The notes below the pieces were generated by a model. The model did not search any database and was not told the origin of the DNA. It was given only the letters and a program-made list of their open reading frames with translations. A program made the position numbers and the translations under genes. DNA of 61,015 bases, the filler included, from Hausera hauseri (taxonomy: Eukaryota): assembly GCA_046269625.1 (NCBI GenBank). It is 10 parts of 10 records of this genome, joined end to end, with 100 filler letters (N's around TTAATTAATTAA, not from the genome) between each part and the next. Parts side by side here need not be neighbours in the genome. Positions count along the whole stretch, not along the records: positions 40,953 to 46,360 come from JBJURY010260954.1; 9 more parts are not named here. The stretch is one strand, 5' to 3'. Of this stretch, positions 3-59,419 are shown in pieces. Position 1 is the stretch's first letter. Each line of letters starts with the position of its first letter.

Positions 3-764
3 GGATGTAGAAGTGAAAACTACAATCCTATAATGATAACAGAAATACATCCAGAGGCAAGAGCACAGGCAACAGTGGAGAATATCCTAAGGGAACTAGA
101 ACCACGCGGAGTAGAAGAAATCTCTACGGGTGATACGCAAGATGTCACAGTTCAAACGGAAGCCAAGAAAAGAGGTAGGCCGAAAGGGACGAAAGTAAGT
201 GACATTCATAACAGAAAAGATAGAAACGAAGAAATAGTAAGACGATTATTATTATCAGGAACAAATGGCACTCTCGAATCAGTAGATATAGACCCACTAC
301 TAAGAACGTTATTGGCTAAGCTGCATACGTCATTTGCTTCATTTGACATGCAGGCAATAATCCCAGACGAACTGTTCACAACGATACGTAATAATATGTT
401 ACGAATAAGTAGGCAATTCTATGAAAACTTCGAGGAAGAACGGATAAATGAAACGCATGAACTGGATATTTTAGAAAAAATGTTTGCAACTGGAATTACG
501 CGCGAGAAAGCTCGAACGGTGATATCATATCTTCTATATAAAATAATAGTAATTAATCACCAAACTCAAAATCGAGAAGAAATTGAGCTGAATATAAGGA
601 CAGCCGTAAAGATTTTGAAAGATACGTTAGGCTATTGGGCTCAATGTAGAGGTGGATGGTTGACTAGCCTGATGACCAATATAATAAGGTCAGGGGAACA
701 AGGAAGAGTAACAGATACGCCAACTGCGACACAACCCAACATCTCTAGATCAAGCACAACAGGT
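3..764 (+). pseudogene. Polyprotein region upstream of the glycoprotein; helical, with AT-hook-like KKRGRPKG
   Basis: Frame is open from nt 3. Colinear with contig-7 ORF 43306-44397: EARAQATVENIL/KARTEQCVGQIM, KKRGRPKG/RPVGRPKK, LLYKIIVIN/LLYLAIKIN. Confidence 0.7.
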
Positions 765-2656
765 ATGTCAATGATGGAGATTATTCAAATCCTCCTAATA
801 ACGTCATTATTAATGCCAAAAGCTGTAGGTAGAGTAGCTTATGACTGCTCTAAACCTAGTGAAGGTCAAAAGTACTCTCTAGTGGATTTGGAGAAATGCC
901 CAGCTGACCCAGAACAGTTAACGACGACAAGTGGTCTGATATACTGGGTATATCAAGAATCCGAATTTATAAAAGGGAAAGTCAGGGAATGTTATGTAAA
1001 AAGATCATTTTTCCTGTTTAATTGTGCCTATTATTCTGGAAATTCCGCCATAACCGAGCCTACGACACCTCTCGAACCAATTATTATATCGGGAGCAGAA
1101 TGTCAAGATGTTTTTAAGATTGGTATCATAACTATACAAAACGCGCATATACCAGCAGTTCGAAATCGACTAAGTATACCAAAATATTTAAGGCAGGAAG
1201 AATAGATAAAACAATGGAAGGCACTTGCAAAGGAGTGGATTACGACGTGGGAGGTACTATTGCGCCTAGAACGGAAACCATAGAAGATTATCAGATCCAG
1301 TTAAAAGAATATGAAGTATTATTCGACTCACAGGCAAAATTGATGACGACTATAAGTGAGTGCGAGTATGATAACGACGAATGTGATACTGGGAAATCGA
1401 AAATGACATTGGAAACCACTGCAAGTAAATGCCAGTTGACGCTATTAAAGAAAGGAAAGTTTAACAAGACGGTAGGAAAAACGGCGGAAAAAGAAACAGC
1501 GACATATAAAGAAGAAACAAAGGAAGTGAAGATGACGGAAGTGGCTACAATCGTATATTCGAAAAATCCGGAAGACATGATGCGATTTAAAATCACGGGA
1601 GTAGCAACTAAGTGTAGTGAAAAGATATCAAAAACTAACTACAAGGGTATCTTAGCAAGAAAAGAAATACCCGGTGCGAAAACCAAAATAGAAAAGAAAG
1701 ACATAAAGTTGACGCAATATTTCGATAATAAGATTGACTTTCTAATCAATTACGTAAGGAAAGAAATTAGAGGTTTATATAGAGAAATAATAATGAATGA
1801 ATGTAAGCTGAATTAGGAAATAATGCGCAATAAAATGGCATTGGTAATAACGAATCTGGACATGGTAGAGCCCGTAATGCCCTTCGGCGACGGAATCATT
1901 GGTAGAGTGATTGGCGAGGTACTGATAACAATAGAATTCAAGAAGGTAAAAGTATCAATCAGACCAACAGAAGAAAACACAATGGAATTACCTGTGGTTT
2001 ACCATACAGAACCGAGATATGTGATGCCAGTAACCAGAATATTATTAGATATTATTGTGAAGCCTACTCCACTATACAATTGCACCTTCATTATGCCGCC
2101 AATGTTTAAGATCGACAACGATAAATGGATTAGAACGCCTAAAAGAGAAGCAGTGCCCAAACCGAAGACGTTAAGTTTGATTAATCTGCAAAAAAATCAA
2201 AAATTCAAACCGCTAACGGGAATATCTCAGGGAGGAATTTACACACAATAAAATCTAGAGGATTATCGACGAATGTTGTTGTTTCCCCCACAAAGACAAA
2301 GAGTGATAACAGAACTGACTAGGAGAGTAATGTGGGATGGCGAAGGATCACCGCAATGGGAAAACCTTATGGGTAAGGACTATCTAAAGAGGGTAACAAG
2401 AAACGTTATGGAAACGATGTGGGGAAAGTACTTATATTTTGGCCAAGCAGCTTCCGGTTTTCTAGCTATATGTTTTATTATTAGCGCCATACGGACAGTA
2501 TTTACGGAACTAGGTAAAGCCTGTGGAATACATGCAGCAGTAGGATGCTCATGAAAAATTTTAATAGCGGTAATACCAGCAGTAGCAAGTTGTTTCTTAG
2601 CAAACCATGATGCACGATGGAAGAGGAAGATACTACAAAGGAAAGACATAAAATAA
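765..2656 (+). pseudogene. Chuvirus-like (class III fusion) glycoprotein: internal signal peptide, ectodomain, TM
   Basis: Signal IIQILLITSLLMPKAVG|RVAYDC, then chuvirus-G-type motifs YDC..YSLVDLEKC, AGRID..GTCKG, YFDNKIDF..LYREII..EC, GEVL, ELPVVY, PPMFKI..W, GGIY, FP, WGKYLYFGQAASGFLAICFII. One frameshift at ~1160-1190; stops at 1814, 2249, 2552. Confidence 0.85.
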
Positions 2657-2896
2657 TCCCTGTATAGTATACATGATGATAATGATGCCGAATATAGTCA
2701 AATGAAGACAAAGAAACGAGTAGCTAGAATCAAACAATTAGTGCTAAAGACACGGGAGCCGAAGTATATACTAAAGTTAATAACTGACCTACCCCGTCTA
2801 GATCCTGTGGATGAATATCATAGACAGTTGTATAATGAACAACCGTTAATAAATCCTTCACCTCCCCGATACGTAGTATATACAGGACTATAGCCT

Positions 2897-3475
2897 ATGC
2901 GTCAAGTGCAACAGATAAAACAGAGTTTTGATGAAAATTTGACTCCCTATGAACACAAACCTAAGTACACTGTTGACGATAAAAATGAAAGACAACCATC
3001 TATAAGACCAGAAATAAAAATAGAGGTGAACGGATATCCAATGACGGCTTTACTAGACACAGGATCTACAACAACGATAATGGGAAGGAGCCAATTGCCA
3101 AAGGAATTAAAAAGAAAGTTACGAAGACCAACTACTACATTAATAAACGTAGGAGCATTCGGTACAGAAGAGGAAATCAAGATGGTCTTAGATGCCAAAA
3201 TTAAGATCGGTGAACAAATGTTGAAACATACTATAAGGATAGCAGATAATTTGACTAACGAGATTTTAATTGGGTGCGATATATTAAATCAACTGGATAA
3301 CGATTACATAGATATGAGAACGTGTCAAATTAAGCCGTTCGATGAAGATCGTAACGAGGGAATGGTTTCTATAACAAGAGACATTACGATTCCACCGCGA
3401 TCCGAGGTAGTGGTACATGAAAAAATAGAAAGTCGTGTTGTACCAGAGATTATATATTTTGAACCGTCCCCATAG
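2897..3475 (+). pseudogene. Retropepsin (aspartic protease) plus Gypsy PR-RT linker
   Basis: ALLDTGS (Asp codon 3056-3058), ILIGCDIL, IPPRSE linker. Confidence 0.92.
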
Positions 3476-3679
3476 GTTATTAAGAAATATAAATTTTTAA
3501 TCGCCCCTCACGTAGATAAAGTAAGAGATGGAAGAGTCCACTTACGAATTTGTAACACAACAAACAAAGAAAAACGATTACGGAAGTGTACCAGACTGGG
3601 AAAAATAACGATTACTGAAGAAATAATAAAAGAAGAAATCTGCCAAATAATATCAGATATATATAAAATAGAAAAGATA

Positions 3680-5183
3680 ATGACAGATAAACTGAAAAGG
3701 AAACCAGAGGAAGACAAAAGAAGAAATAAAACCACGAACATCGATTGGAACGAGAGATTACAAAAATGCGAAATTCTAAGTAATGAAGAGAAGGAGATAT
3801 TAATCGAATTATTGGAAAAGAATAATAGTCGATTTGCACAAACTGACTATGATCTAGGCACGATGAAGGTAATACAGCATGCCATTAAGTTGAAGGACGG
3901 CCAAGACAAGCCAATTAAGAAAAGACCGTATCGATTAGCATACGATAAAAAACAGGAAACACGTAAGATAATAAAAGAAATGAGAGAAAACGAGATAATC
4001 CGACTAAGCTGTTCCCCATGGACGGCGCTTGTGGTAATGGTCAAAAAGAAAGATGGAACTATTAGATTTTGCATAGACTATAGAGCCTTAAACAAAATAA
4101 CAGAGACTGATACATATCCCTTACCAAGAATTGACGCGATACAAGATAAACTACACGGATCGACCATATTCACAACTATCAATATACAAAAGGGTTATTG
4201 GCAAGTGGAGGTGAAAGAAGAAGATAAAGTAAAAACGGCTTTCTCAATTGGAGAAGGGCTATGGGATTTTAATAGGATGCCATTTGGATTAAAGAATGGA
4301 CCACCAACGTTTCAGAGAGGAACAGAACTTCTATTATTAGATGCTCCACATGCCATGGTATATATAGATGACGTAATAATAGCATCACCAAATTTTCAAC
4401 ATCTAAAGGATCTACAGGATCTTTTTGATAGATGCGAAATAATGGGTTTAAAGATAAATCCCAAGAAATGTTCATATGCACAAGCAGAGGTAGATTGCCT
4501 CAGACATAGTGTATAGACATGGTGTAAAACCTCAGGACAAGCTTTTAGGAAAAATAAGAAATTTTCCTAAGCCAGGTACAGTTAGAGAATTACGTCAATT
4601 TCTAGGTTTAACAAACTATTACCGAAGATTCATAAAGGATTTTAGCAACATTGCAAAACCGCTGTATGAATTATTACGTGAAGATCTAGATAAAGTTATA
4701 TGGTCGAACGAATGTCAAAAAGCTTTTGAATATTTAAAAGATAGACTATTAACGGCTCTCATATTAATCTATCCAGACATGACTAAACAATTTATTTTGG
4801 CAACAGACGCAAGTGATTATGGAGTAGGAGCAGTACTATCCCAGAAGGGCGAAGATGGAAAGGAACACCCTGTAGCTTATGCGTCATGAAAACTTAATAA
4901 GCATCAGAAGAAATATGCTGTAATAAAAAAGTTATTAGCAGTAATATTTGCCTTGGAAGTGTTTTCACCCTGTATTAGTGAAAATAAACCGATCTTAATT
5001 TATACGAATCATAGACCGCTCCAATGGCTAAAGCAGCATGAGAATCCAAATTGCAGACTACTACGATGGGCTCTAAAGTTACAACCGTACACATTGAATT
5101 TCCAGTATAAACCTGGATCGCGAAATGCCAACGCCGACTACTTATCGAAAATACCCGATAAATCAGAAACAAAAAGGCAGTAG
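3680..5183 (+). pseudogene. Reverse transcriptase and RNase H (frameshifted)
   Basis: RPYR, SPW, RFCIDYRALN, YPLPRID, RMPFGLKNGP, YIDD (4361-4372), RQFLGLTNYYRRFI, TDASDYGVGAVLSQ, KPGSRNANADYLS. Confidence 0.95.
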
Positions 5184-5200
5184 TCGCAGCTGTATGGAGT

Positions 5201-6296
5201 ATGGATGGATCAGTCGAGAAAATTAAGGCAAATCAAAATGAAGATGTAGAAATAAGGGCCATTAGAAAATACATAAAAGACAAAACCATATTAGTTGACA
5301 TAGAGTTAACCCGTCATCTGGCTCGATTTAGTGAAGCTTACGAGGAAAAAGAAGGATTTCTATATTTTATTAGCCAAAACGGACCTGCATTAGTAATTCC
5401 TAGAAAAAATAGAGCAGTTTTACTGACTCAGTATCACGATGGATTACTTGGTGGACACCAATCGGCCAATAAGACACTAAACAAACTAAAACGGAAATAC
5501 TTTTGGCTAACGATAATGAAAGACGTACAGGAATGGTGCGAGAGCTGCAACCTGTATGGTACCCGGAAAAACACGGGATCAAAATTCAAAGAGCCACTAA
5601 AGGTATGGGACAACCCTCCAGCGCCATTCGAGTTTACCGCAATGGATATAACGGGGCCATTACCGTTGACACGAAATGGAAACAAATATATTTTAGTCTT
5701 CATCGACTATTTCACTAGATGGGCTCTTGCTCTGCCAATGCCTGATATGAAGGCAGACACAATTGCTGAGAGATTTGTGGAAAATATAGTATTTAATTAC
5801 GGAGCCCCAAGGATCCTCTTGACTGATCAAGCTGCAAATTTAACTGGAACTGTAATGCAGTCCATATACGACATCCTGAAGATATTAAAATTACGATCCA
5901 CGCCGGGACATCCGGAGAATAATGGAATGGTTGAGATATATTGGAGATTTAAAAGGAAAATTAAAAACGGTGGTAAATACTAGGCAAGACGATTGGGACG
6001 AATATATCAATACGTGTTTTCGTAAATCGGACATCTGTTCATGAAGCTACTAAGGAGACACCGTTCTACTTAATGTATTTCCTGGATGCAAGATTACCGA
6101 TTGATCTAGATTTTAATGTAAAACCAATTTCCCATTTAATAGAAATAGAAGATTATAAGCAGTTGATGCAGGAACGTCTAAGTTAGATAGGCCCTATAAA
6201 GGACCGTATGAAGTAGAAAAAGTAGGTCTACCGAATATTTGCTTAAAAAAGAATAAAACCTTTGTAAAGGTCCACGTTAATAGATGTAAGCCCGCT
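5201..6296 (+). pseudogene. Integrase (degenerate HHCC, DDE core, GPY/F tail)
   Basis: HDGLLGGH..CESC, MDITGPLP, IDYFTRW, LTDQA, HPENNGMVE; YKGPYEV..VHVNRCKP at ~6190-6295. Confidence 0.92.
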
Positions 6297-11431: not shown

Positions 11432-11854
11432 ATGGAACCGGAAAAATGCCCAATCTGCCTCGAAGAGATAATGCAAGAAAAAACTACACTGCCGTGTAAA
11501 CATAGTTATTGCAGTCCTTGCATCAGCATCTGGTTGGGGGAGCACAACAATTGCCCCTGTTGCCGAAGAGATTGTACTTTCTGTTGGGTATGCTCCAAAT
11601 TAATAGCAGAGGATTTGGCCACCCTATCATGTAGGCATATGTTTTGCCAGTCATGTATACTTGAATACCTAACTTGTTGCCAATTGTGCCCCTATTGTTT
11701 GGAAACAGTAGATTTTTACACTACAGAAGGAGTGATCACGTATCTGAATGTGAACGGTCAAACTTCTATCGCTTTAGTGATTGATGAGGACGACGGCAGT
11801 TGGCCAGAAGCGTGGAGAAATCCACAACCATACACACTGCTGGATATAAACTAA
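11432..11854 (+). CDS. Tandem double-RING protein
   Basis: CPIC..CKHSYCSPC..W..CPCCR, then CWVC..CRHMFCQSC..CPYC. AATAAA follows at ~11867. Confidence 0.88.
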   Translation: MEPEKCPICLEEIMQEKTTLPCKHSYCSPCISIWLGEHNNCPCCRRDCTFCWVCSKLIAEDLATLSCRHMFCQSCILEYLTCCQLCPYCLETVDFYTTEGVITYLNVNGQTSIALVIDEDDGSWPEAWRNPQPYTLLDIN

Positions 11855-11915
11855 AAACAATTTATTAATAAAATTAATTGTGATAAATCGTTTTATTCCC
11901 TTTTATTATTTTAAG

Positions 11916-12199
11916 ATCTGAACTCCATACCCATACTATCACATGGATTCCGACAAAGGACAATACACCAATATTCAGTCTATAACCCAAATGGAGTTTT
12001 TACCACAATAGGAAAGGAATGTACCATTTGCCTTAATAACTATTCAATCAAGCCCGTACAGCTGGTCTCTTGTAAACACCAGTTTTGTCGCTGCTGTATA
12101 AGGGAATGGTTTCTCCAAAATAACACTTGTCCGACGTGCCGTACCATTAATAAACTATTCTTGTACGAGAACAAATATTATACAATAAAGAATTTATAA
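11916..12199 (+). CDS. RING finger protein/exon (absent from ORF track)
   Basis: After ttattattttaAG the frame reads GKECTICLNN..SCKHQFCRCCIREW..TCPTCR to TAA at 12197-12199. Confidence 0.8.
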
Positions 12200-12261
12200 A
12201 TAGAATTTGTTTAAAGTTTTGACTTTTAGAAATATAATGTATTGTAGATGAGATACAGAAA

Positions 12262-12659
12262 ATGAAAAAAGTTCAATTTCAAACTCCCAGATACAGTGAA
12301 TATACAAGACCAGCACAACCTAATACGGTACAGTACATGCTGCATTACCAAAATAGACAATTTGGACCGTCAGCGTTTATTAAAAGATTGACAAGCTACT
12401 CCAGAATGACAGTATTGGACAACTCCATGAGAGATACACAGAACAGGAAAATATCATTCCTCGAATATCCAAATTCACCCGTTCCAGGGGAATTAGCACA
12501 ATTATATGCCAATGCCGGACTATTCCGAACTCCAACAGGACAAATAATATGTATATATTGTCAGGGAGAATTTCAGTATGAACAGATAAAGGATCGACCC
12601 AAAGAAAAACATAAGAAATTACGCCCAACTTGTCCTTACTCGTTGAACGTGGAAGTAAG
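12262..12659 (+). CDS. BIR-domain (IAP-like) protein, truncated by contig end
   Basis: RKISF.EYP..LYANAGLF..CIYC..D.P.EKHKKLRPTCPY matches the BIR C-x2-C-x16-H-x6-C pattern. Confidence 0.82.
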
Positions 12660-17271: not shown

Positions 17272-17670
17272 TGAGTTGTGAATGGCATGAGTTGTGAATG
17301 GCATGAGTTGTGAATGGCATGAGTTGTGAATGGCATGAGTTGTGAATGACATGAGTTGTGAATGGCATGAGTTTTGAATGTCATGAGTTGTGAATGGCAT
17401 GAGTTGTGAATGGCATGAGTTGTAAATGGCATGAGTTTTGAATAGCATGAGTTGTGAATGGCATGAGTTGTAAATGGCATGAGTTGTAAATGGCATGAGT
17501 TGTGAATGTAATGAGTTGTGAATGGCATGAGTTGTGAATGGCATGAGTTGTGAATGGCGTGAATTGTGGTATAACACAAGTTGTTATTTAGCACGAGTTC
17601 TGATTTGGCATGAGTTGTGATTTAGTACGAGTTGTGAATGACACGAGATATGATTTCCACGAGTTGCGAG
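17272..17670. repeat. 16-bp minisatellite (GAGTTGTGAATGGCAT)n, decaying rightward
   Basis: About 18 near-identical copies followed by degenerate ones. It produces spurious repetitive ORFs. Confidence 0.95.
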
Positions 17671-19660: not shown

Positions 19661-20381
19661 ATTTTAAATTTGGTGCGGTAAGCTTATGCAATTGATGCAT
19701 TTAAACAATTTATTATTGAATATTCGAAAATCAATAAAATTCAAATTAAAAATCAATAAATTTGAGATTTAAAAAATCAACAAATTTAACATTTGAATTT
19801 AAAAAGTCCATAAACGAGACAGTGTGCGTTGACATGGTTATAGTTTTCATTATTTCAGAAATAACTTCCAAGAATGGTAAGTTTTTTAATTGCAAATTAT
19901 ACAAAGATTGTATGACTCAGATTCATGATTCGCAGAATTGCCACAATGCGATGCAAAAGTATTTCAGTTACCATTACAACACGACTAAATACTATGTATA
20001 TCCTACATGTGAGGTAGTGTGCCAAACCCGTTATGATGAATTCTACAATGCCCATAAACAACATCTGACTTCCTTTACCAAGTCAAAGAAAGAGATATTC
20101 AATAAGAATATGCCAATGACATCATGCGCTGCTCAAAAAATACAAAGCTGTAGTTCATACACGTATTGCACATCCGCAACACAATCCGCAGAACTGTCAT
20201 GACACATTAAAGCGCTACTACGGACACACATTCAGCCGGATCCAATATTATATTTGCCCAGGATGCGAGACTGTATACGACGCATTATACAAGAACTTTT
20301 ATGAAAATGTCAAAGCTCATCTGACTGACTTCAAGTCAAAGTCCAAGAAGACGATCTTCAATAAGAAACATAATCCTGCTG

Positions 20382-23010
20382 TTGCAGCAGTACAGCAAGT
20401 TCCACACACTTCAACGCAGCACACTGGATCATCAGCGCAGCAGCAGACATTCCAAATACTCCACCAAAAGTCAAAGGCAGCGAGCAGTTGATATCGCAGC
20501 GTTGAAGAAAAAAGTCCGCAGATACGTTATTGCTGCAACTGATCAAACAACGCTCCCTAAGTTTCTGGAATGTACAAAGGATGAAACCATGGGGATTCTC
20601 CAAGACAACATGGTAGAGATCAAGGCCCTTAAAGTCAACTTAAAATTAGAGGCCACATACACCAATGTTGATGGCAAATAATCGAATAGGGCCCTCAAGA
20701 CTGAAAATAAGCCAATATTGGAAGCCACCAATATTTCAGAATGGATGCATGAGGAACGCACGAAGCTGATATGTGAAGCTTAGGAAAGCCAGAACAAGAA
20801 GAGAGGATGGATTCTGGCAACCATAAAGAGATTGCTTATCTTTGTGCACAAGTACTCCCCATGCAAGGCAGCTCCTATATACAGCTTCCGGAATGGATCG
20901 TTAAGAAAACCATACATCAATGTCCATAATGATGATTCAATGTGTTTCAAATACTCCATTCTTTCAAAACTCGTACAGGATCAGAAACATGCATGTCGAG
21001 TTTGGTTGTATAATGATCAACAGTGCAATTATGATTTCCAATGTATTACGTTCCCACCATCCTTAGATGAAATCAAGAAATTCGGGCGACTTAACAATAT
21101 ATCCATCAATATCTTTGGATTAGAGGAAAATAAATTCTATCCGCTACAAACATGTGATGCCGAATTGGAAGATCATAGGGATCTGCTCCTGCTAAACGAT
21201 GAGGAAAAGAGGCATTTCATATGGATCAAGAACCTTGAGCGTCTAGTGAGATCCCAAATTATAAAAGATGACTATAGAATTGAGATCTGCAAACGACGTC
21301 TGTCCCATTTCAGTGGCAAGTTTGCTCTGGAGAAACTTACAGATCACAACATATACTGCAACAAAAATATTGCATCAGGACAGAATTTCCCAAGGATGAC
21401 CATATAGAATTTAGAGTTCGAAAAGAAGCTCAAGGTTCCAATAGTCATCTATTGCGACTGAAGCAATCTTGAGTCCAGTTCAGAGTTGCAGTTCGAATCC
21501 GAAACAAAGCAGCACAACAGCATACCAATATCACGAAATCTCTTCATGTTGTATGTATGCAAAAGGACTGGACAAGGAACCATTTCTATTCAGGGGTCCA
21601 AATGCAGCAGCACATTTTATCAAGCGATTAGAAGAAATCGTCCATAAGATGGAAGTTATGTTGAAGCAACATAAGTTTTTGGATAAAATGACCATGTCAA
21701 AGGAACAAGAAGAATGGCGTGAGGCAACAACATGCTACTTTGCTCCAAATCCTTCACAGCGGAGAATCACAAAGTCAGGGATAACTGCCACTTTACAGGC
21801 AAATATCGAGGCGCAGCCTGCAACAATTGCAATCTACGATGCAGAACAATGACATTCGTGCCTGTAGTATGCCATAATCTCAGTGGTTATGATTCCCATT
21901 TCACAGTCCAAGAATTGAGAAACATTGAAGGTAACATCGATGTGATTCCCAACAGTGAGAAGAAATGTCACCTTTACGAAACATGTTGGAAAAGTCAGAC
22001 TCCGTTTCATAGACAGTCTCCAGTTCATGTCTTCACTTGACAGTTTAATGAGGAACCTCCCAGCAGAAGAACTGGAGGAGACGAAGCGGCTCTTTCCAAT
22101 TACATTTGAATTGCTCAAGAGGAAAGAAGTGTTTCCCTATGAATAAATTGCATCACGGGGATCACTAGATAAAACATCATGGCCGGCCAAGAAGGACTTT
22201 TATAGTCAACTCTCAAACAGTGATATCAGCGATGCGGATTATCAACACGCACGAAAGGGTCTAGGAAGCATTCAAATGTAGGACAATAGGAGAATATAGT
22301 GACATATCTCAAAACCGACGCGCTGCTGGTGACAGATGTCTTTGAAAGCTTCCAGAATGCCACACTTACAAGCCACAGGCTGGATCCAGCTCATTTTTTC
22401 ACAGCTCCAGAAATGAGTTGGGCAGTTATGCTGCGATATACCGGCATTAGACTGCAGATCTTGAAGGATTATGATATGATCCTCATGATCGAGCGAGGCA
22501 TTAGAGGTGGAATATGCCAGGCCATTCACCGGTATAGTGAGACCAACGAGTACATAGCCAAATATGACTCATCAAAGCCATTCTCGTATATCACATACTT
22601 GGATGCCAACAACCTCTATGGATGGGCAATGAGCGCCCCACTGCCGTATGATAACTTCAGATGGGTGAAGAATCAACAGAATCAACATCGAATTGGTCTG
22701 TTATTGGAAAAGGACCAAGAAGCTGATTGCTAAACCGAACTTCCACAACAGCACGATATATGCTAAAAATCTGGTCAGTATTCATATGCTAAAAACATCG
22801 CGAGTTCAACAAGCCAATTTATGTTATCAAAGAAAGTCAGCTTCGCTGACTGAGAGTTCTGCAAGAACAGACTCATAATATCAGAAATGAAGCGCATACA
22901 GTCTCATGACCATCAAACACAAATAGTAGCGCTGCAGAAGAGCTTGGACTGATTCGACGACAAACGGCACAATATGAAAGACGGAATCTACATACTGCCA
23001 CACGCATATG
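20382..23010 (+). pseudogene. Protein-primed family B DNA polymerase (Polinton/adintovirus type), fragmented, internally deleted
   Basis: NVHNDDSMCFKYSI, RDNCHFTGKYRGAAC..CNL, HNLSGYDSHF, RFIDSLQFM, FPYE, YLKTD..DVFE, RGIRGG, YLDANNLYGWAMS, then an abrupt jump to KLIAKPNF and terminal FDDKR. Confidence 0.9.
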
Positions 23011-29640: not shown

Positions 29641-31390
29641 GAACAAAAAGCTTTCGACGAGATGAAGAAAATATTAAGATACCCAGACTTTAACTTGCCC
29701 TTCATAATCAAGACGGACACCAGTAAAGAAGGTATTGGATATGAATTAGCACAGAAAAGAGAAGATGAAGAATTAGAGCACCCGATTGCTTATGGAGGAC
29801 GTTCCTTAAAAGAGGCCGAGAAAACCTATTCTGTTACTGAATTAGAAACTCTAGCTGTAAAAGAAGCACTTCAACACTTCATCGTTTATGTGTACGGGCA
29901 AAAGATTATAATTGTCACTAATCACAAAGCTGTTACGACCTTAAAGGGACGAGCAAATAATCCGACATGCAGACTTAACAGATGGACAGAAGAAATCTCC
30001 AGATATAATATTGAATTCCAGTATAAACCAGGGAATAAACAAGTAGACGCTGACGCATTATGAAGATTAAAGATCAAAACCAGTACAATTGCTGTAATGA
30101 AGAAAAGCAAACTCGAAGAGATAATAGATCCTCAACGCGCCTTGACAATGGATAAAGCAATTAAAATTTTGACAGAACAGAGAAGGGATAAAGTCATCCA
30201 ACAGATTATGGAATTTGTTAAAAAGGAAGTCATACCGAAGGGACGACAGTTACAGAAACATTTACACAAACACGGACATAAATATTGCGTCTTAAACGAC
30301 AAGAGCAACGAAGATATTTTATATTACTAGCGAAAAGGAAGAAAACTGATAGCTATTGCCAAAGATTTACGAACCGAAGTGTTAATGTCAGAGCACGACT
30401 TGTACTTAGCCGAACACATGTATTGGAAGAAGACATTAGAAAGGATAATGAATAAATACTTTTGGCCTAGTATCTATATTGATGTGAAGAATTGGGTGAA
30501 TGCTTGTGAAGTATGTGCGACTAAGCAGAAGAAGACGAAAAATTACATGGCCAAATTAAGACCAATTTATGTACCCGACAGGCCCATGCAAACCATGTCG
30601 ATGATATCGTAAGACCTCTTCCTACAACTCACAAGAGCAATAAGTATATTTTGACGTGTATTGACCGATTAACTCATTTTGTTGAGTTAATAGCATTAAT
30701 CGATGAAAAGGCCAAAACCTTAGCAGAAGCCGTAGTAAGAAAAATTATTTGCCGATACGGCCCCCCCAGACCAGATACTCAAGGATCGAGGAAGAAATTT
30801 TACAAGTGAATTATTCAAGAAAATCACTAAAATATTTTAAATCGAACGATTAGCGACTACTGGAATGGTGGAACGAATGAACGCAACTGTTATACGTATA
30901 TTATCGACAGTAGTAGCAAAAGACCGTAAAGATTGGGACGAATTTTTGGAAGGGATTCAGTTTGCTATTAATACCACACCATATCCAGCAACAGGATTCA
31001 CTCCATTTTTCATGATGTATGGACGCGCAGCTGTGTTGCCCACGGACTTAGAAATGACGCCATACACAATCAATCCCAAAGATTTAGAACAAAATTTCGC
31101 AGAAGTATTACAAACGCGATTGCAAAAGTGTTGGGAAATAGCCAAAAAATTATCCCAAGAATGTCAGGAGCAGTTTAAAAAGCAATATGATAAGAAGCCA
31201 AAACCGCATTATATAGAACAAGGAAATTGGGTTTATGTACATTACCAGGTAGCCAAGAAAGGCACCTTATTAAAATTAACTCGCACAGGCAGAGGACCGT
31301 ACGAATTACCAAGGTTACGCCAACCATAGTATTTATTAACAAAAATGGAAAGGAAGAAATCGAATCAGTACAGAGTTGTTAAGACAGAAA
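29641..31390 (+). pseudogene. RNase H and integrase
   Basis: KTDTSKEGIG, ELETLAV, TNHKA, KPGNKQVDADAL; H..AEH..CEVC; GMVERMN; TGFTPFFMMYGR; RGPY. Confidence 0.92.
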
Positions 31391-31449
31391 TACGGCCAAA
31401 TAAAAATTATAATCTACGTCAGCGTGAGATAAAAACTTCTTCAATAATT

Positions 31450-32712
31450 GCTAGACCGATATTATACGTTCAAATAGTTTTAGCATTATCGTTAATTGCT
31501 TTATATATTCCGAAAGCTAACTCCGAGCTGTCCAAAGAAGACGCAGGAAAACAAAAAGATACACAAAGTTTAAAATCAATGAGGGCCTACGGTGCATATT
31601 GGGAAAATCCGTGCGTTTGGTTTAAGGCAGATGACCCTGTTAAAAGCCGTGTAAAATTCCAAGTATTATTCATAGACCTAGGCAATGCTGCCCTAAGGTC
31701 GTGCAATTTTCCATATTGAGCAAAAAGGAAGTGTTGTATGTTAAATTTTGATTGAACATATACATACAAACTGCAAATGACCTACTATAATATACGTGGT
31801 ATTCAAGTTCATATACTTATGGAGCTCAATATAATCACGCCGAAACAGAATGAAACAAGTCAGGCTAAAACAGAGGAAATAATTCGAAGTACCGATCCGA
31901 ATATACAAATATTGGACAAGAACATTAACGGAATCTTCATAAATAAGGAAAAACAATGCATTCAAATAGATGCTCGTACAGGAGTAACTCTTAACCAGGA
32001 AATTAGTATTGTTTTCGAAGCAGTAAACGGAAAAACCCCGAGAATAAATTACTGTTCTATTCATGCCGGTGTACAACGCCCATGTTGTAGGTTACCAGTG
32101 AACCAAGAGTTGAAATTAAAATTCGACTTATGTGAAGTAAGGCCAAATAAAACAAACAAACATTTTCGGACTTACTATCCAAAGAATAGGATATGGAAGG
32201 TTCCGGTAAAAACAAACACTAAAATGCCGACTACTCGAGTTAGTGTCATTACCAGACCCGCTACGTCGGGCAATGAGCCTAAAAGAGAATTAGGAGGTAT
32301 ATCTGTGAAATATTCGGCGCAACAATCTAAGATTGTGTTCTTTGTGGAGGAAAAACAACATTACGACATACATATAAGTTGTCGAACAACCTATAATAAT
32401 CAAATTGTAACATTACTTAAAAACACTTATCAGACCGAATGTAGTTTGCTAAAACCGCAATCTGATTACATAGTACAAATATTTGCAGAAAATAAACAAA
32501 ACCAAACAATTACATTGCGTACCTTAGACGAAATTCCCGCAGAACCGCATATGTATGAAAATATAGATGATGAAATCACAACTCCAGTCACAACACAAAC
32601 ACCAATAGGATTAGCTACACTGCCGATCGTATTTATCTCTGCACTGTCAACGTTTTTTTCTTATTATATTAATTGCGATTTCTCGATTAGTTACCAAAAA
32701 CTGTTATTCTAA
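31450..32712 (+). pseudogene. Type I membrane protein with signal peptide, Cys repeats, fibronectin type III-like domain and TM
   Basis: ILYVQIVLALSLIALYIPKANS signal; LKPQSDYIVQIFAEN (FN3 L-x-P-x2-Y-x-V-x3-A-x-N motif, ~32440-32495); Thr-rich stalk; IGLATLPIVFISALSTFFSYYI TM. Confidence 0.7.
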
Positions 32713-32884
32713 GCGCCATAAAAATTCAGAACGGGAATTAAGGGAATTGGAAAACCCTGTAGATCCGTATGATAAAATAACCTGACAATTACAGATCAGG
32801 TTATTTTGTCATTAAACAAAGGAATGGTTTTGGTTTAAAACCATCCTTTGTTTTAAGATTAACCTTTATATTCTCATTTTCAGA

Positions 32885-33964
32885 TTGGTAAGTAGTCAGA
32901 ACCAGATGAACCCGAACCGACTTAGAATCGACACCGAGGAAACTACGAGTCGACTTAGTATCCACAAATTCTTGCAGCGATATGTGACCGTACGGATTCC
33001 GAATTCAAAGGCCATCTATCGGCAAATCAATACAGAATTGCAAGGAAAGAACTACGTTCAATGCGGGAAAGTTGGTGAGATACCAAACGGTCTGAAAGGA
33101 ACGACCGAGGAAGCCATAGCTATATATTTATATGCCGGGAGAGAGAATAAGGACGCCAGAGCATATCCTTTGCAACGGATCACCCAGTACCAGACAAACA
33201 AGGAACAGAAGATATATGTATATTTGGCCGACGGAGAAATCTATTATCGGCTGAAAGACCAAAAATGGGACTCTTTCCAAGGAAGGCAAAGCCGGTTTAG
33301 CATGTTTGAATTTGACACTAGAAATTTCCATAACTACAATCTGGAATTTCGTGTAGCCGCCTTACCTGTGAAAATGATGGTTGAAATAACTGAAGAGGAG
33401 ACAATATCCATCTCATTACCGCCCTTAGAGTTTAGGCAAAGGCCTACCTAAGACGAACAAGACACACATCTACATTCGTTCAGATTGGTAACCAATGGCA
33501 GGAGTATCAGGATTGCCGCAATAAACTATGGAGAAGGAGAAGAAGGAAATTATATCCCGATCGAAATATCCATCCGAGAAGAAAACGGGGCCAAAGTTTA
33601 TTCGAAAATCATTAACCCGAAAAGGAAAGTACTAGAAACTTATGCAGAAGTTACCGGGATTAAAAGAAAACAATTAAATCATGGAAAGGATTCTAAGATA
33701 GTGCAACAGGAAATAGCACAGTGCCTCTACGGATACGTTTTAGTGGGGTATCAAATAGAGAGGATGATAAAAAAATTAGCCATACCGGTAACACACATAG
33801 CCGGAGTGAGAGAGATAAAAACCCACCCGACTGTTACGAGACAAATGGAGATCAAGGTCAAAGAGAAGAACTTATCTACCACCAACCATGGAGAGCCGAT
33901 TCAAGCTTATGGTAGAAGCCATGGCTTGAGGAAATATAAAAATAAGCAGATTGTTGACCGGTAA
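32885..33964 (+). pseudogene. Accessory ORF with REX4/ISG20-like DEDDh exonuclease fold, catalytic acids lost
   Basis: Acceptor ttctcattttcAG at 32882-32883; one in-frame TAA at 33449. ISI.EENG.KVY..IINP...V......VTGI....L..G.....VQQEI...L.GYVLVG matches the REX4 pattern; AAINYG replaces A-x-DCE. Confidence 0.6.
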
Positions 33965-34182
33965 TCAAAGATCCCAATATCTAAGGGACATAAATGCTGG
34001 ATTAAACTGGAAACACGAATGGATTCCCAGTAACTCGGACAGAAACTTCGGAGTTTTCCCAAGCTGGAAGGAATCAGTACACGATACAGAAGCGCTACCG
34101 TCCTTACTCACAACCAAGAAGCGTCGAGACAACACCGAAGTGGAATTACTAAATAACTATACAAGGATTAAAAACGGAGAAA

Positions 34183-34521
34183 ATGGAAGATAAAGTACGT
34201 ACAGATGGAAAACGCAGTACAAGTTATGGCGCCACGGCAGATAATAATCTATTTAAGATACCTGAAGTTCCTCGGAAATGCATAGAAGAAAAACATAGAA
34301 TTTCAGAAATCGAAACAGGAAAAACAACGAAAAGGAAAACCGCCTTTTTCGATTACTTATTCAAGAAGAAAAGTAAAGAAGGAGAAAAAGGACTGAAAGA
34401 AGAACCCAGACAAGACAGAAAAGATTCAAAATCAAAACAACCAGCAGAAGAACCCTCAAAACCAGACATGCAGTCCCGAATTGAGAAGTCCACGAGAAAC
34501 CCAAGCAAACAGAAAGAATAA
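34183..34521 (+). CDS. Lys/Glu-rich ORF, possibly frameshifted tail of the preceding ORF
   Basis: Low-complexity and basic; AATAAA overlaps the stop. Confidence 0.35.
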   Translation: MEDKVRTDGKRSTSYGATADNNLFKIPEVPRKCIEEKHRISEIETGKTTKRKTAFFDYLFKKKSKEGEKGLKEEPRQDRKDSKSKQPAEEPSKPDMQSRIEKSTRNPSKQKE

Positions 34522-35008
34522 ATAACAGAAATAAACGTCCTACGGTAGAAGACATCCACGGAATATGTTCACTACACCACTACGGCAGATTATCCCAGGA
34601 TGCTAATAGCCACAGAATATTATAGCAAACAAAAAATTACGGAGGCAATATTTTTTGTAAAATTAATGCCTGCCAGACAAGTTTTTTGAGAACACGTATG
34701 TCTGGGAAAATCCTAAGATCGGAAAATACGTTGCTCCGATATTTCAGTCCAGACGAAAAGGTAAAATCTTAGTCCCTGTAGATAAGTCAATAAAACTGTT
34801 ATTAAAGAAGCAATATCAAAAATACCGATCGACTGATAAAGTTCCCGATTAAGATCGAGACACTATCAGCGATAGGACTCTAATACCTGTGGGATGCGAT
34901 CCCAAAAAGAGTTCCATAAATCCGAAATAAAAGAGAACCTCTGCTTATTTATACCAAGACGAAGACGGGTTGGTAATAGAACCCATAGAAATTATGCTAA
35001 GAGTTGAC

Positions 35009-35416
35009 ATGGACGACGAAAATTGGGAGAAAGAGGAAAATCAATGCCCAGTATGCGAGGCAAATTTGAAATAAGGGTACGTAGTGTTAAATAACCTCGA
35101 CTGCCGGCACAAATATTGCAGGGATTGCTTAGAGAAATGGACATTAGATAATGGGAAGACAATATGTCGTGTGTGCAGAGCGGAGGTTGCCGACTTAAAA
35201 TATTACCCAAACAGTAGCTACACTAGTATAGTTAGAATAAAGCCCTACCACAATTATGAACTCGAAACAAATCCCAGAGAAGATCAACCAAGTACCAGCT
35301 CTGGACCCAGTCTAAGGAGACCTATGGAATTGTTACGATGGCCTCGTTCTCACGGCTTCTCTCCTGACGCAATGGGCACATCCGAGGATGCCGTTCAGGG
35401 AGAAGAAATGTTGTAA
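35009..35416 (+). pseudogene. RING finger protein overlapping PPT and LTR start
   Basis: MDDENW..QCPVC (stop at 35072) ..CRHKYCRDC.EKW..CRVCR in one frame. Confidence 0.8.
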
Positions 35417-41410: not shown

Positions 41411-43270
41411 CTACGTCTGACTTCCATCTATTCTCTTCATATGTTTCAAGAACTTTCCAAAAGGCATTATAATTGCAGTTAGTATTTTACATGAAAATCC
41501 GGTCAACGTAAATATTTCATATCCATTTATTATTGCTTGGATGACGGCCTTAATCATTTTTATTAGGAAATATATCGCTAGAAATCCGGAAGCCGCTTGT
41601 CCGAAACTTAAAAATCTTCCCCAAATTTCATCGAGTATTTCCGTGGTTACTCGTTGGTAATGGTGTACTGCGAGCAAGGATTCCCGTTTAGCTTGATAGC
41701 GGGTGTCGTCCATTACGAAAGCCATGGCTCGATATAATTCATGAATCCGCTGTGGCAGAAAATCGCGAAATTGCCTGAAGGCTTCAATTTCTTTAGGCCT
41801 ATATATGCACTTTGACGAGATATCTTGAAACTTATCGTCGGTATTTCCTTTTGCGAGATTTGTTCCTGTTAATTTATTTAGAACGGTAGTAATGCCTCCA
41901 TTTGGTAAACTAACCCAATCCGTTTCACTCCGCCTAAACATGGGTTCTCCTAAGCTTGCTTTACAATCTTTAAGGATTGTCGGTTCAGTTGCATTACCTA
42001 ATAATACTCTAATGAGCGGCGTAGCTAATCTTGTAGTATTCTGGTAAATAACAGGAAGTTTCTGTATACAACGTTTTTCTTCAACGTTGATTGGTACATC
42101 TCGTTTCTCACATTTGTAAGTCAATAGGACTTTACCGGTAACTCTACCGAAAATTCCTTCTCTCATAGGAATTATTGGGGATGCCAACTCAGGATTAGCG
42201 TAAATAAGCGACAGTTTTGTTCTCATAATTTCCATACCCAATTTACAATCATTCGTTATCATTTTATGATATAATTCGGTTATTCCAACTTGTCCTTTGT
42301 AAGAGAAATAATTGTCTCGGTTTTTCAGGTAGTCCTCAATCCGAATATCATGCGTTTCTAGCTTGTAAGTCTTCTCATTTATTTCTGTTTCTGCGACGAA
42401 GAACGCTTCATAGTTGGTAGTGAACATCACTACTTCACAACAAGAAATTATTTCTTTTTTAATAAATTTTAGCCCATGCTGATCAGAGATTAATATAGTA
42501 GGCGTAGGATGTTCTGATACGTCTGCGCGTGTCCCTGAATTGGTATCAGATTTATCCACATATCGCTTTCCGGTGGTTTCACTAAATTTTAATTCTTTAA
42601 TCTTGATGAAATTACAGCTTCTTCCAGAGGGAGGTTCCAATATTATAACAGAACTTCTAAAAGCACAGGTTCCGTCTTGCAAGTGACATTTCTAATTTTT
42701 AGTTTATAACTTGGTGAGACTATGGAACATTACTTTCTGTGATCGCATCTCTGATTCTTAAAAATCCACGACTACCACATTTGCTTGTAATTCTTTTTCG
42801 ATGTCATATTCTGCTCCGTAACAATGTCCATTGTGCATATCTAACCTTCCGGCCACTACCTTGTACGCCCTAATTATCTTTCCTGGTTGCATTTCTAATT
42901 CCAGGAAATCCCATTGTACTCTTCCGGTTTCCTTAGCTTGTTTGCAATGCTGACATTCTAAGTTCATAGGAATTAGCGCAGTTGTCGGTTTAATTATTGA
43001 TGAATGCCCGTGTACTGATCCACAGTGGAAAATACTGCGAGATCGTCTCAACATACATTCCATTTTATCTAACGATATCAGCTCTTGTTGTTGGAACAGG
43101 AAATAATTTTTTTCTTTTGTTTTTATCTTGTGCGGTCTAGCATCTTCGCACACCTTCAGATCCAATAGGGAGTATCTCTGTCCCAATTTAAACTTATCTC
43201 AGTCGTAGACGGTAACTGCACTTATATGTTTTATTAACATCATCAAGGTGAATAGGCTGATTAACCAATT
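41411..43270 (-). pseudogene. Chuvirus-like glycoprotein, second divergent copy
   Basis: Signal WLISLFTLMMLIKHISA|VTVYD*, YSLLDLKVC, FHCGSVHGHSS, AGRLD.NGHCYG, LYHKMITNDC, LPVIY, WGRFLSFGQAASGFLAIYFLI. Confidence 0.85.
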
Positions 43271-43983
43271 TGATTCATTTTTCCGATAGCCAACATCCGT
43301 CGTTGTCAAATTACGCAACATATCATCACGTTTATTACTGGTCCGCCTGTCTTTTCTTTGTCATATAGCCTTGACCAATTTACTTCGCATGGCAATCTTC
43401 TTGCCGTTTTTCGTGCTAAACTTATAGATCTATTGACTTCATTCTCTCGATTAGGGTTTATTTTGATAGCTAAGTAGAGCAACATTTTTCTCAATTCCTC
43501 ATTGGTGTTTTCTACCATTATCTTTTCAATTACCAATTCATCGGTTAAGTTACTTTTTGACAGTTTAAAACATGAACTCCTCATCGTTTTAGCTGCTTCG
43601 AAAATTATCCTTTCTTTATCATCTAATACATCACCCCGAAGGCTCGAATAATTTACAATTCGTATTAAATTCTTCATTAACTCACTTAATTCCTCATTGT
43701 TTGTACTGAGAGTCGGAATTGACATCTGTCTCAGTTCTCTAATCATTTTTCCATTATAGTCAACTTTTTCTCGTGTCTTTTTAGGCCTACCGACTGGACG
43801 TTTTAGTCTCGGCCCTTTTGTTGTTATTTTGCTCAGTGGTACTAGGTTTATATCGTATTGTTCCTTGTCTTCATCCGTTTGTAAATACTTGAAATACATT
43901 GCAGTGTCTCGAACTCCCATAATCTGTCCTACACATTGTTCTGTCCTGGCCTTACACATGGCTTTTTCCTTTGTCTGCTCGTT

Positions 43984-44205
43984 AACTATCGTTGCTACTA
44001 TCCGATTTATTTCGACAGTGATAATCCCGATATCTATTAGTTGTTCTGGGTCGTCGAGTATTCGACCTCTAAAGTAAAATCTGTAAATTAGCTTATTTGT
44101 TCCGCCATTGCTTAATAACCACTCTCTTACATCATTTACATAGGAATATGTAGTTAACTCACATTCTTTTTCGTCCATCCATTCGGAAAATACCATTACT
44201 TTTAT
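43984..44205 (-). other. Ubiquitin-like domain within the polyprotein (ORF 43306-44397)
   Basis: Gapless manual alignment to ubiquitin residues 1-61 with identities at V5, E16, V26, G35, R42, F45, G47, L50, D52, L56, D58, I61. Confidence 0.65.
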
Positions 44206-44397
44206 CGCTACCTCTGGTTTAACCCTTAAGAATTTAGCGTATTTCTTAATCAATAGTTTTGGGACCGTGCTATAAATCGTATTCTCACTGGATAATTTAG
44301 TTAATGTTGGAATACGTTGTCTTAACATACTTTCAGTAATGTTTACGTTAAGTAATTCGATTAACTCTTTTTCAGCTAGCTGCGAATCCAGAAGCAT

Positions 44398-46253
44398 CTC
44401 CGCATTGAATGTCCTGTTCTGCAGACATGTTTCTATCTCATTTAGTTATACTAGAGTCACGAGTTTTTCGGCAAGTATTGCGTAGAAGTATGCATCCCAT
44501 TCGGGTTCGTTTTCGGCGTCTGGAAGTCCATAGTCTACCAAGGCTGTATTCGTTTGTTTCACGTTTTCCCTCATTTCTTTTAGTCTCGGTTGTATTTCCG
44601 TCATCTATGTAGTTCGAAACCCTACACCGTTTCCAGAGGCACATTAAATCATTTTCAGTAATTCGCCGAATTCGTTAGACTCGAAGAGTCCTTTTTGGTG
44701 CTAATCTGTTAATTCAATAATTACATCTTTTTGCCATCTTTGTACGAATTCTCGTTTATTTTTAATGTCTGATTCGAAAAACGCATATTTGTTTCGGTAA
44801 ATTTCGAATTCTTTTGCCAGTTTATCTAGCCTCGTCGCATCACTAGTTCGGACCATTCCGACAACTGATTGGCGATTATTGGCTTTGCCATTATAGCCTT
44901 ATCTAACATCTTATATGCATCTTTTAACTCATCATCCGGCCCTCTTAGGAAATTCATAATCCGACCGACATAACTAAACTCGTCCTTATATTCGTCCAAT
45001 TCTACGATACAAGCCTTTATTACGTATTGAGTCTCCTCATGATTTGGAGCCATGATTCGATTTCTCATGCTGTAAATCTGTGCTCGTTTTTCATTTTCTA
45101 TCTTGATTCGATTTTCTAGGTTTGTATACTGTTTGGGTATCGCAAATGCGATTTTTATCTTCTGCATCAAGGGAGGAATATCTACTGGGTCTATACCCAA
45201 TATTCCCAAATCAATATTGCTTCGGTTGCTAACTGGTTTCTCTCTAAGTCGATTAATCATTGCGCAACGAATCTCATCCATTATAAGTTTTAAATTACGG
45301 GTTACTCTCTTCAGCTTCAGGTTGGCTTCTAGGGTGGACAAAAGCGTTTGAGCTTTAGTGACTTTTACACCGACATTCTCCTCGTTTTTACTCCAAATTT
45401 CCGAAAATTCAACTTTACTTTTACTCAGTGATTCTAATTCATGCTTCCATTTTAACAATGTTTCAGGTGATACTTCTTCCGGTTGTCCTAAGTCGATTGC
45501 TTAAGCAAGTTTTCCTTTACTACATAATTTCAAACTTTTGTATAGTCTCTCAACATACTGTTGTTCTTTTTCGGATATGTCCACTTGCTCGCTAATCTGC
45601 TTAAGCCTTTCTAAATTTCGTTGTAGTATTTCTGGATCGTGACATCAAACTCTTATTTTCTTTAACTCATCGGCGTTTTTCCATGAACTTCGGACTTTCG
45701 ACTTTTTTGGATCAAAATCGCCAATGTTCACCGTTTTTTCCTCACTAGTGGGAAGTGGGCAAATCTGGTTAATTTCATTAATTGACTCTGTAGATTCTTT
45801 TACCTCGATAGGCGTCAATGGACCGATTTCCAGTGTATTTAAACTATATTCTACGTCGCTTTCCATAACAATGTTCGTATTTTCCGTTTCTTCTATTTTC
45901 TCTCTAGTTACTGGTGAGAGTGAACGACTTCTACGTTTCGTTTTTAACCAAGGGCTACGGCCTCTATTTTTCGTAATTTTAAGTAATAATGGTTCTATAA
46001 ATTTTTTTTCTGCTGCTTCGTCATCCGTAGACTTATCTACCTTTTCAACTGTAAACTCAAGCTCTGCATCTAAGTCGACTTCTGTTGATGTGCTTGGTTT
46101 ATCAGATGGTTTATTGCTTGTCGGAACACTCTTTTTCCGTGTCATATCAATTCGCTTGGGTGCTATCGCATGTTCGCACTCGGTTTCTGGTTCTGCTAAA
46201 CCATGATACACTTCTGGTAGTCTTAGCTTATCTCTATATTCTTTTTCGGCCAT
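44398..46253 (-). pseudogene. Unassigned N-terminal polyprotein region (disordered then helical; candidate Gag replacement)
   Basis: ORFs 45645-46253 and 44826-45458 share a frame; charged, helical composition; no CCHC. Confidence 0.55.
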
Positions 46254-46889
46254 CAGAACTTGTGTATTGGTAGTTTCAGGCTAAACATGTAGAAATTTTC
46301 AAAAGTTTTTTATATTAATAATAATACCTGTGTCTCCACGAACTCCATATTTTGCTAGATNNNNNNNNNNNNNNNNNNNNNNNNNNNNNNNNNNNNNNNN
46401 NNNNTTAATTAATTAANNNNNNNNNNNNNNNNNNNNNNNNNNNNNNNNNNNNNNNNNNNNGATGAAGAAGAACCTGGAAAAAAAAACGCAGCTAAATTAT
46501 TCTAAGCAATTCTCTTGAGTAGTTTCATGTGTAACGTTCAACTCCTCTTTTTATGTGTTATAATAAATTATGAATGGCGACGATATAAATGGAAAAAAAT
46601 CGAATTCGTTTACATGTATAGAAAATAATTTTTCTTTTATTTACTATATATTAAGGTGTTTCAGAAATATGAAAATTTTTGATTTTGAAAAACTTCAAAG
46701 CTTTTCAGATGAAACTTTTTATGCACGAAACAGGTACAAAAAACGTTGTTCTGTACAGTTACAAAAAGTTTATAATTTTTATGTATTCAAAATACCTCTG
46801 TCCCATTACAGCGTGATGCACATAAAACAATAGCTAAACGGTAACATTTATTTGAAATATAAGTGGCTAACAGCTTATATCAATTTAAT

Positions 46890-57560: not shown

Positions 57561-58100
57561 AATTCAATCTTGCTGTATGAAGAGAAAGATGATATTCACA
57601 ACTTTATAATGGGAAACTTCTTTTGTTCCTTGTAAAACTTATACGTATTAAATAAGTAAACAAAAACCTCAAATCGCCCCTTCATGTTTCCTCAAACATT
57701 TGGAGATGCATAACTTAGTATTCTGTATTCTCAATTTTCTTGCCATCAGAATGAAAACAAATATTTTCTCCTTCCAGTGGCATATTTTCCTAACTTGAGG
57801 TATCTATTGTCGCAGAACTTTATACGAGGTCTTTGCCCTAAAACCGTATGACTTGCTTTGAACTCTTACACGATGGATTGTCTTGTCAGAATTTGGAAAA
57901 TAATTGAAATAGTTGTAATTATTTATCAATTAATGTTCCGTTCAATTTATATTGGATACATAATACAAAGTGATAATAAAAGTGTATATTTTTCAATTGA
58001 GGAATTTTATAATCACCCCATATAGATGATACGTTAATTGACAAATTCATGAAAGATTATAATTGATTCATAATTTTTTAAAAACCCAATTCTGTCAGTC

Positions 58101-59012
58101 ATGAAAGATATGAAACAATATTCCTCCCAATCAGAATGTGGCAGTATTGAACCAGCTACTTTTTCCGTCAAATGGAGAAATGTCGTACTGAAAAATTTTG
58201 AAGCCGAACACAACCAAGCAAAAAACAAACAAGCTGTTGAAGATCAAAAAATGAATAATCTCAAAGAGAATTCTAATAACTATAACAAACTGGTAAAGGA
58301 TATATGCAGTTTTACCAATCCAAATCGAATTATGGGCGCCAAAATCCGATGTGAACTACCAAATGAATTTTTCGAAATCAAAATTACCGGACGAAATTGG
58401 AAAGCAGCCGAATGCAATCTTAGTATTGAAGTCTGTACTCCCGACGTGTGTATCGATTACCCGGGATATACTGCAAAACGGCGAATTTTTCGACATTACT
58501 TAGAAAATCTGAAAATTACCGACTTAATGCTCCTGCCGTTTATTGAAGACGACGCTCTCGATTTTGCCGGACTTATAAATCCACCATCTCCAATTCGATC
58601 GTCTGCTTTCAATCGCCATAGCTCGTTTTTTGAAGAGGATAAATTAGCATTGGCCGAGTTGCATGAAAAACCGAAGGCACCTATATTAGTAACATATTAC
58701 TACAAAGATCACGTAATGAAATTGCCCATAGTTCATCCGAATTTAAAATATTACCGAAAAATGTATCGGGAGTGCATTTTGGGTGATCCTTTTTTGGGCC
58801 GAATGTACGCTAAAAGAGACGATATGTGTCCAAAGGATCTGGCCAATTATTTGAATGATTTGGTTCAAGAACGTAAAGGTGGTCCAAATCAAATAGTATT
58901 CAAAGATGAAACATCCTATTGGGATTTATTCTTCAATATGTCAGTGAGTGTCCATATGACGGATATATCGTCTGAACTAGAAACTGATTTGTTTTACCAT
59001 ACAAGAAACTGA
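58101..59012 (+). CDS. Hypothetical protein, 303 aa, intronless
   Basis: Long open frame with normal composition in AT-rich DNA; no motif recognised. Confidence 0.55.
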   Translation: MKDMKQYSSQSECGSIEPATFSVKWRNVVLKNFEAEHNQAKNKQAVEDQKMNNLKENSNNYNKLVKDICSFTNPNRIMGAKIRCELPNEFFEIKITGRNWKAAECNLSIEVCTPDVCIDYPGYTAKRRIFRHYLENLKITDLMLLPFIEDDALDFAGLINPPSPIRSSAFNRHSSFFEEDKLALAELHEKPKAPILVTYYYKDHVMKLPIVHPNLKYYRKMYRECILGDPFLGRMYAKRDDMCPKDLANYLNDLVQERKGGPNQIVFKDETSYWDLFFNMSVSVHMTDISSELETDLFYHTRN

Positions 59013-59419
59013 TTGATGCTCATGATCCGGCATATGTCGAAGAAGTAATTTCTAATCTGATCATCAAACTAATCACTGATGAAATGAATCCATGCAGTAA
59101 TATCCGAAGGCGATTTATGAACTGTTTTATGGTGGCCAATAAAAATAATGTAGTTTCGTCACTGTTTTGCAGTCACCTTCCAAAATGGCTTAACATTCTG
59201 TCAAGGGGATTATTTAGTCCGTATTCACAAATTCGAGAAGATACGTGTTACTGTGTTGCGTTTATGTTTTCCGAAACCAAGTTCATCGTCGATCTGATTA
59301 AAGCGTGCACAACCGATTTCATATATGATTTTATCTGTATCATCTGTAAAGCCATCGATCATTACTCGATCATTACTCAGCGGCTGAGGTGGTTTGGTTT
59401 GATGTTATATTGTTGAAAG

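Follow-up and report, generated by a model that had tools for sequence, protein, structure and literature searches.

A candidate integral ubiquitin-like domain ahead of the glycoprotein in a decayed, very probably Burro-type retroelement

Does a short open segment of a decayed retroelement encode a ubiquitin-like domain (UBL), and if so, what could such a domain be doing ahead of a viral-type glycoprotein? The question is raised by positions 43984..44205 of the window, the whole stretch of 61,015 nucleotides of DNA analysed here, which is a string of short contigs with N spacers between them and is AT-rich, of animal type and rich in decayed Ty3/Gypsy pieces. The candidate sits on the minus strand of a 5.4-kb contig (40953-46360), and the coordinates, strand and translation given by the first-pass annotation proved correct, as positions 44205-43984 yield 74 residues that begin at residue 65 of a Met-started ORF (43306-44397) within an open stretch of 379 codons (Table 1). 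This open stretch belongs to a polyprotein gene that is broken, and the copy on this contig is interrupted by stops and one frame change between the pieces. The domain had been described as embedded in a polyprotein ahead of the glycoprotein; the order is as described, but the pieces do not form one open polyprotein.

The element is highly repeated. In one public run, 15,462 contig records fell on the stretch, covering all 30 bins, and most of them match at 80-95% identity. The copy here is decayed and represents a very common retroelement, the host of which is probably a flatworm. The two upstream ORFs, which belong to the same repeated element, have no Pfam match, and no Gag, MATH or BIR similarity was found in them. 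Moreover, the contig holds zero RING, BIR or pol ORFs and ends without pol, leaving env alone visible for the UBL-bearing copy, and no Gag knuckle, MATH domain or LTR was found on these 5.4 kb, which may end short of them.

Several other features of the window were also recorded. A tandem repeat with a unit of ~48 bases lies at 17272-17669, broken ORFs at 19750-22733 resemble by eye the protein-primed DNA polymerase B region of a Polinton-like element, and two adjoining ORFs of 312 and 142 aa, the second with a weak TPR-like match (E 0.0014), are located at 58074-59416. The contig at 23762-29540, which carries a chromodomain-bearing Ty3/Gypsy integrase, has a higher GC content, is depleted in CpG (observed/expected 0.49 vs 1.0-1.16 in four other stretches), and resembles vertebrate DNA that became mixed into the assembly.

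Table 1. Positions of the candidate domain, its neighbours and the features compared with them in the window.
Feature	Position	Strand	Evidence or remark
Candidate domain of the integral ubiquitin/SUMO-like kind (74 aa), without a C-terminal GG	43984..44205	-	PF13881, ESM, core pattern, third-position bias
Pair of ORFs upstream, of 224 and 211 aa, in the same repeated element as the UBL candidate	44826..46280	-	Family contigs cover both
Open stretch (379 codons) with the UBL candidate, basic patch and helical domain	43306..44445	-	
Basic AT-hook-like patch, common to copy A	43777..43803	-	PF02178 E 0.52 here, 0.11 in copy A; alignment
Helical domain collinear with the copy A Bcl-2-like domain, degenerate at the BH2-like end	43375..43758	-	
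Hydrophobic segment resembling a signal peptide, before the glycoprotein; its frame differs from that of the 379-codon ORF	43205..43267	-	Hydropathy scan
Glycoprotein N-terminal piece, class III fusogen type	42758..43198	-	PF24664 E 8e-13
Glycoprotein C-terminal piece with membrane anchor	41411..42691	-	PF24664 E 1.6e-41; hydropathy
Copy A, of a different family and contig: residues that may end the UBL domain, cut by the window edge	3..77	+	
Copy A: Bcl-2-like domain, BH2-like Trp/GGW end	354..701	+	PF00452 match under the cut-off, E 0.0048
Copy A: glycoprotein preceded by a signal-like segment and followed by protease, RT, RNase H and integrase; interrupted by stops	771..5983	+	
RING ORFs	10545-12199; 35075-35416		Downstream of pol genes
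BIR ORF	12238-12657		Downstream of pol genes

On the minus strand of the contig, the UBL candidate is followed by an AT-hook-like patch, a helical domain, a signal-like segment and a glycoprotein of the Monjiviricetes type. The signal-like segment has an equivalent position in copy A and in P0002, and PF24664 is found in copy A and in the present copy alike. In copy A, the glycoprotein precedes protease, RT, RNase H and integrase, and therefore env lies before pol. The basic patch and the helical domain align in order with those of copy A with a local score of 69, which was reached by one of 1000 shuffles, and BLASTP matched the two helical domains at 25% over 128 aa (E 0.045). The only PDB match of the copy A helical domain was BOK (E 0.031), with the BH2-like end included. 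The helical domain downstream of the UBL candidate gave no Bcl-2 match of its own in Pfam and no usable match in ESM Atlas, and a two-sequence profile of it retrieved nothing relevant from PDB; it is likely Bcl-2-like, as read through homology to copy A alone. This neighbour, which had been missed before, is the better functional clue.

The first codons of the window had also been placed at the equivalent domain end in copy A. This was borne out as a weak alignment, since the first 13, 18 and 25 residues of copy A each scored best at one anchor, in the last third of the domain, among all positions of the 379-aa ORF, but 13-25 residues prove no fold. Elsewhere in copy A, no Pfam match was obtained on 3290-3472, where the dUTPase-like domain that Burro-type elements have between protease and RT was sought. 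Past its integrase, ORFs at 6159-7427 contain a hydrophobic signal-like stretch and have no Pfam match. Downstream of pol, 10545-12657 holds a run of ORFs, of which three encode RINGs (two RINGs in one of them) and one a BIR. A third element (31330-35416) carries accessory ORFs after the integrase, namely FN3-like (E 0.0006-0.06) and RING ones, as well as a weak RNase T-type exonuclease match (E 0.002).

How far does the candidate resemble ubiquitin? The first-pass annotation had aligned it without gaps to residues 1-61 with 12 identities. The ungapped register stands, and the count lies within the range of 9-13 of 61 obtained against 97 distinct natural viral ubiquitins (11 in 47/97 and 12 in 25/97). 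However, the identity to ubiquitin, taken alone, is at chance level: when the 379-aa ORF was shuffled 300 times, at least 11 identities arose somewhere in 106 of the shuffles, and the gapped local score was equalled by 181 of 1000. The ungapped BLOSUM score stands out slightly, with 8 of 300 ORF shuffles equalling it. A profile of the 97 viral ubiquitins ranked the ORF ninth among 285 ORFs (E 5.3) and did not single it out, and searches of PDB sequences with the candidate found no UBL.

Among the likenesses to ubiquitin, the hydrophobic pattern is the real signal. As had been noted before, the candidate shares this pattern, with hydrophobic residues at 14 of the 16 positions that we take to form the ubiquitin core. 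The same level was reached by only 8 of 11,702 windows of 61 residues from the ORFs of the window, the candidate included. Two of these 61-residue windows attain the ungapped score of the candidate, and only the candidate itself shows the core pattern as well, in what is a post hoc comparison. In agreement with the earlier description, no GG follows the domain in the translation, and the hallmark of type I (conjugatable ubiquitin/SUMO) domains, the C-terminal di-glycine, is absent.

The surface of the candidate bears on what a UBL could do here. Proteasome-shuttle UBLs of the Rad23/Dsk2 type are characterized by a Leu8-Ile44-Val70 patch. This patch is not kept in the candidate, where the equivalents of Leu8 and Ile44 are Glu and Tyr in the ungapped register, the copy being decayed and carrying private changes. 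Canonical proteasome shuttling is thus doubtful, and the earlier proposal of a proteasome adaptor is weakened. In the same register, lysine is present at none of the seven ubiquitin lysine positions. Such changes, together with the strong divergence of copies A and C in the tail of the UBL domain, would suit a UBL that has no partner in the host and serves the polyprotein only as a structural spacer or an aid to folding. Nevertheless, the surface residues of a decayed copy may differ from those of its family, and the UBL stands among captures of a host-regulatory kind (Bcl-2-like here; in Burro, as far as the review describes it, also BIR, MATH and ankyrin; PMC6431247), and a spacer is considered rather unlikely.

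Profile searches point to the ubiquitin-type families. PF13881 (Rad60-SLD_2) is the sole Pfam family that matches the candidate, in three of seven whole-domain cuts (E 0.24, 0.12 and 0.046), with scores of 11.9-14.3 bits that are below the family cut-off of 23 bits; no Pfam match was found in the other four whole-domain cuts or in any of the six partial cuts. A Pfam search had been suggested as a check, and it did return a ubiquitin-type match, although to PF13881 and below threshold. Unrelated Pfam matches of similar E were obtained in at least 17 of 55 non-overlapping control tiles, and therefore the identity of the family, not the E-value, carries weight; none of these 55 tiles matched a ubiquitin-type family. 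As well, four of the eight ESM Atlas matches listed carry PF00240 and/or PF11976, with scores of 0.82-0.83 that, being below 0.9, serve as a lead only. No second UBL was seen when tiles of the contig were scanned with Pfam.

Structure prediction, the other check suggested, did not produce the expected fold. Single-sequence AlphaFold2 models of 108 and 76 residues had mean pLDDT values of 46.6 and 58.1; neither is a beta-grasp, and the helix is missing from both. Fold searches with the two models gave no ubiquitin-like chain among the matches listed and nothing above noise. Formally, this is the outcome that the first-pass annotation had named as a refutation, but both are low-confidence models built from a single sequence and cannot decide the fold. 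The 363/379-aa ORF had no homologue in a set of 5.8 billion sequences, among 1.84 billion representatives or in metagenome contigs. Glycoprotein baits retrieved no long polyprotein, one env fragment of 272 aa and nothing from viral contigs, and tblastn found relatives at none of 118 metagenome loci. With no homologue from which an alignment could be built, the beta-grasp fold is unconfirmed.

Variation within the repeat family offers information on the coding region. The variant places considered are 39 of the 43 in 43960-44230, and no indel is among those listed. Variants of intermediate share fall at the third codon position in 16 of 27 cases (p 0.005), and this preference indicates that the domain was constrained. 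The places at which the present copy stands almost alone are spread evenly over the codon positions (4, 4 and 4). The pattern shows a real, selected coding region together with a decaying copy, and it is silent on the fold.

A constrained domain of another fold, lying in the accessory region and resembling ubiquitin by coincidence, would fit the chance-level identity, the two models without a beta-grasp and the profile matches, all of which are sub-threshold. The pattern test is also post hoc, because the segment was picked for looking like ubiquitin. However, two unrelated methods, the Pfam HMM and language-model features, point to one clan, and the candidate falls where Burro elements are described as having a UBL (PMC6431247). 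We therefore hold coincidence to be unlikely. The likeliest reading, given converging weak evidence and the Burro precedent on one side and models that are not beta-grasp on the other, is that 43984..44205 is quite probably a real UBL, integral and non-conjugatable.

The element that carries this UBL is very probably a Burro-type, envelope-before-pol Ty3/Gypsy element, and a possible course of events can be outlined. Active copies would carry the UBL, basic patch, helical domain, signal-like segment and glycoprotein as a single polyprotein. Cleavage by signal peptidase and the element protease might then leave the part from the UBL to the Bcl-2-like domain, basic patch included, in the cytosol, where the UBL would not be conjugated and instead would bind a host partner, such as an E2/E3 or a ubiquitin/SUMO receptor. 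In this way the UBL may set the level or place of the Bcl-2-like piece, which could keep the host cell alive during replication of the element. The role of a docking surface that ties the Bcl-2-like piece to host ubiquitin/SUMO machinery is proposed tentatively, as one that we would not yet call probable. The whole explanation, that of a UBL in a Burro-type element docking the Bcl-2-like piece to this machinery, seems reasonably probable.

Parkin and cIAP provide UBL examples to which a further role might be likened, namely that of an adaptor for RING/BIR E3 ligases of the element itself. RING and BIR ORFs are indeed present downstream of pol genes in the window, and BIR and RING-type motifs are mentioned for Burro in the review (PMC6431247). 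However, no RING or BIR ORF occurs on the contig of the UBL candidate. The RING/BIR ORFs are on other contigs, beside element families with 25-36% glycoprotein identity to the present element, and no LTR pair was found that would place them inside an element. The tie to a RING cargo made in the first-pass annotation is therefore unsupported, and the adaptor role appears quite unlikely. A broader proposal, in which the host would be a parasitic flatworm, not a planarian, and several distant families (25-36% env identity) would keep a UBL, AT-hook and Bcl-2 cassette before env as an ancient conserved anti-death module, with the UBL recruiting the RING/IAP ligases of the element, is improbable. 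Finally, ubiquitin inserts in pestivirus polyproteins are cut by host deubiquitinases, and a UBL that precedes, within a polyprotein, a piece in need of release could act as such a processing signal, but because GG is missing past the domain, both here and in the matching tail of copy A, this cleavage is highly improbable.

The reading of an integral UBL beside a Bcl-2-like domain does not make this a new kind of element, and its value is that of a second, distant instance beside Burro. A constrained UBL-Bcl-2-env cassette in families so distant would argue that the cassette is an old component of envelope-bearing retroelements in flatworms, one under selection, and the divergent sequences are supplied for confirming the UBL fold. 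In the literature search, no paper was found that joins a ubiquitin-like domain, LTR retrotransposon, polyprotein and gag, and no functional study of the Burro UBL was found.

Compared with the integral (type II) UBLs of PF13881, PF11976 and PF00240, the candidate is similar in its length, core pattern and lack of GG, and in having an R-F-x-F-x-G strand and an L-x-D-x-G-I turn. It differs from them in that all of its scores are below the family cut-offs and the Ile44 patch is not kept. Among retroelements, the Troyka LTR element was considered and rejected, as it is described without an envelope gene (PMC12440569), whereas the element here has env. Chary and Hayashi (2026, PMC13524379) reported nine GAG-ENV-POL flatworm elements, the hosts being Schmidtea, Macrostomum and Prostheceraeus. 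The present element shares with Smed_errantivirus_1-6 a gB-type env before pol, and by eye its glycoprotein is similar to theirs. In copies A and C, both the spacing of the cysteines and the motifs agree by eye with the Platyhelminthes C1a env rows of that paper; a word search of its text and seven supplements gave neither 'ubiquitin' nor 'Bcl' (PMC13524379).

The closest counterpart is found in planarians, for which the UBL-Bcl-2-env layout has already been published. According to the account given in a review, MATH and BCL-2 flank a Ubi2/SUMO-like domain (PF11976) in the Burro/GYPSM1 polyproteins, and BCL-2 is succeeded by an env with mononegavirus fusion glycoprotein matches and then by protease (Arkhipova and Yushenova 2019, PMC6431247). 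There, Burro elements are giant gypsy-like LTR elements that also carry BIR, MATH, ankyrin and RING-type motifs, and the Ubi2/SUMO-like call is a single HHpred remark (PMC6431247). The best family of the present candidate is PF13881, in contrast to PF11976 in Burro, and the two are likened by domain order as described there. Burro-type elements have an N-terminal Gag with CCHC knuckles, a MATH domain and long LTRs (PMC6431247); none of these turned up on the 5.4-kb contig, which may stop short of them, and the present copy is broken. Similar to Burro as the review portrays it, the element has a high copy number and BIR and RING-type motifs in or near it, and it places a ubiquitin/SUMO-like candidate and a likely Bcl-2-like domain ahead of a mononegavirus-like glycoprotein, which in copy A stands before protease, RT, RNase H and integrase (PMC6431247).
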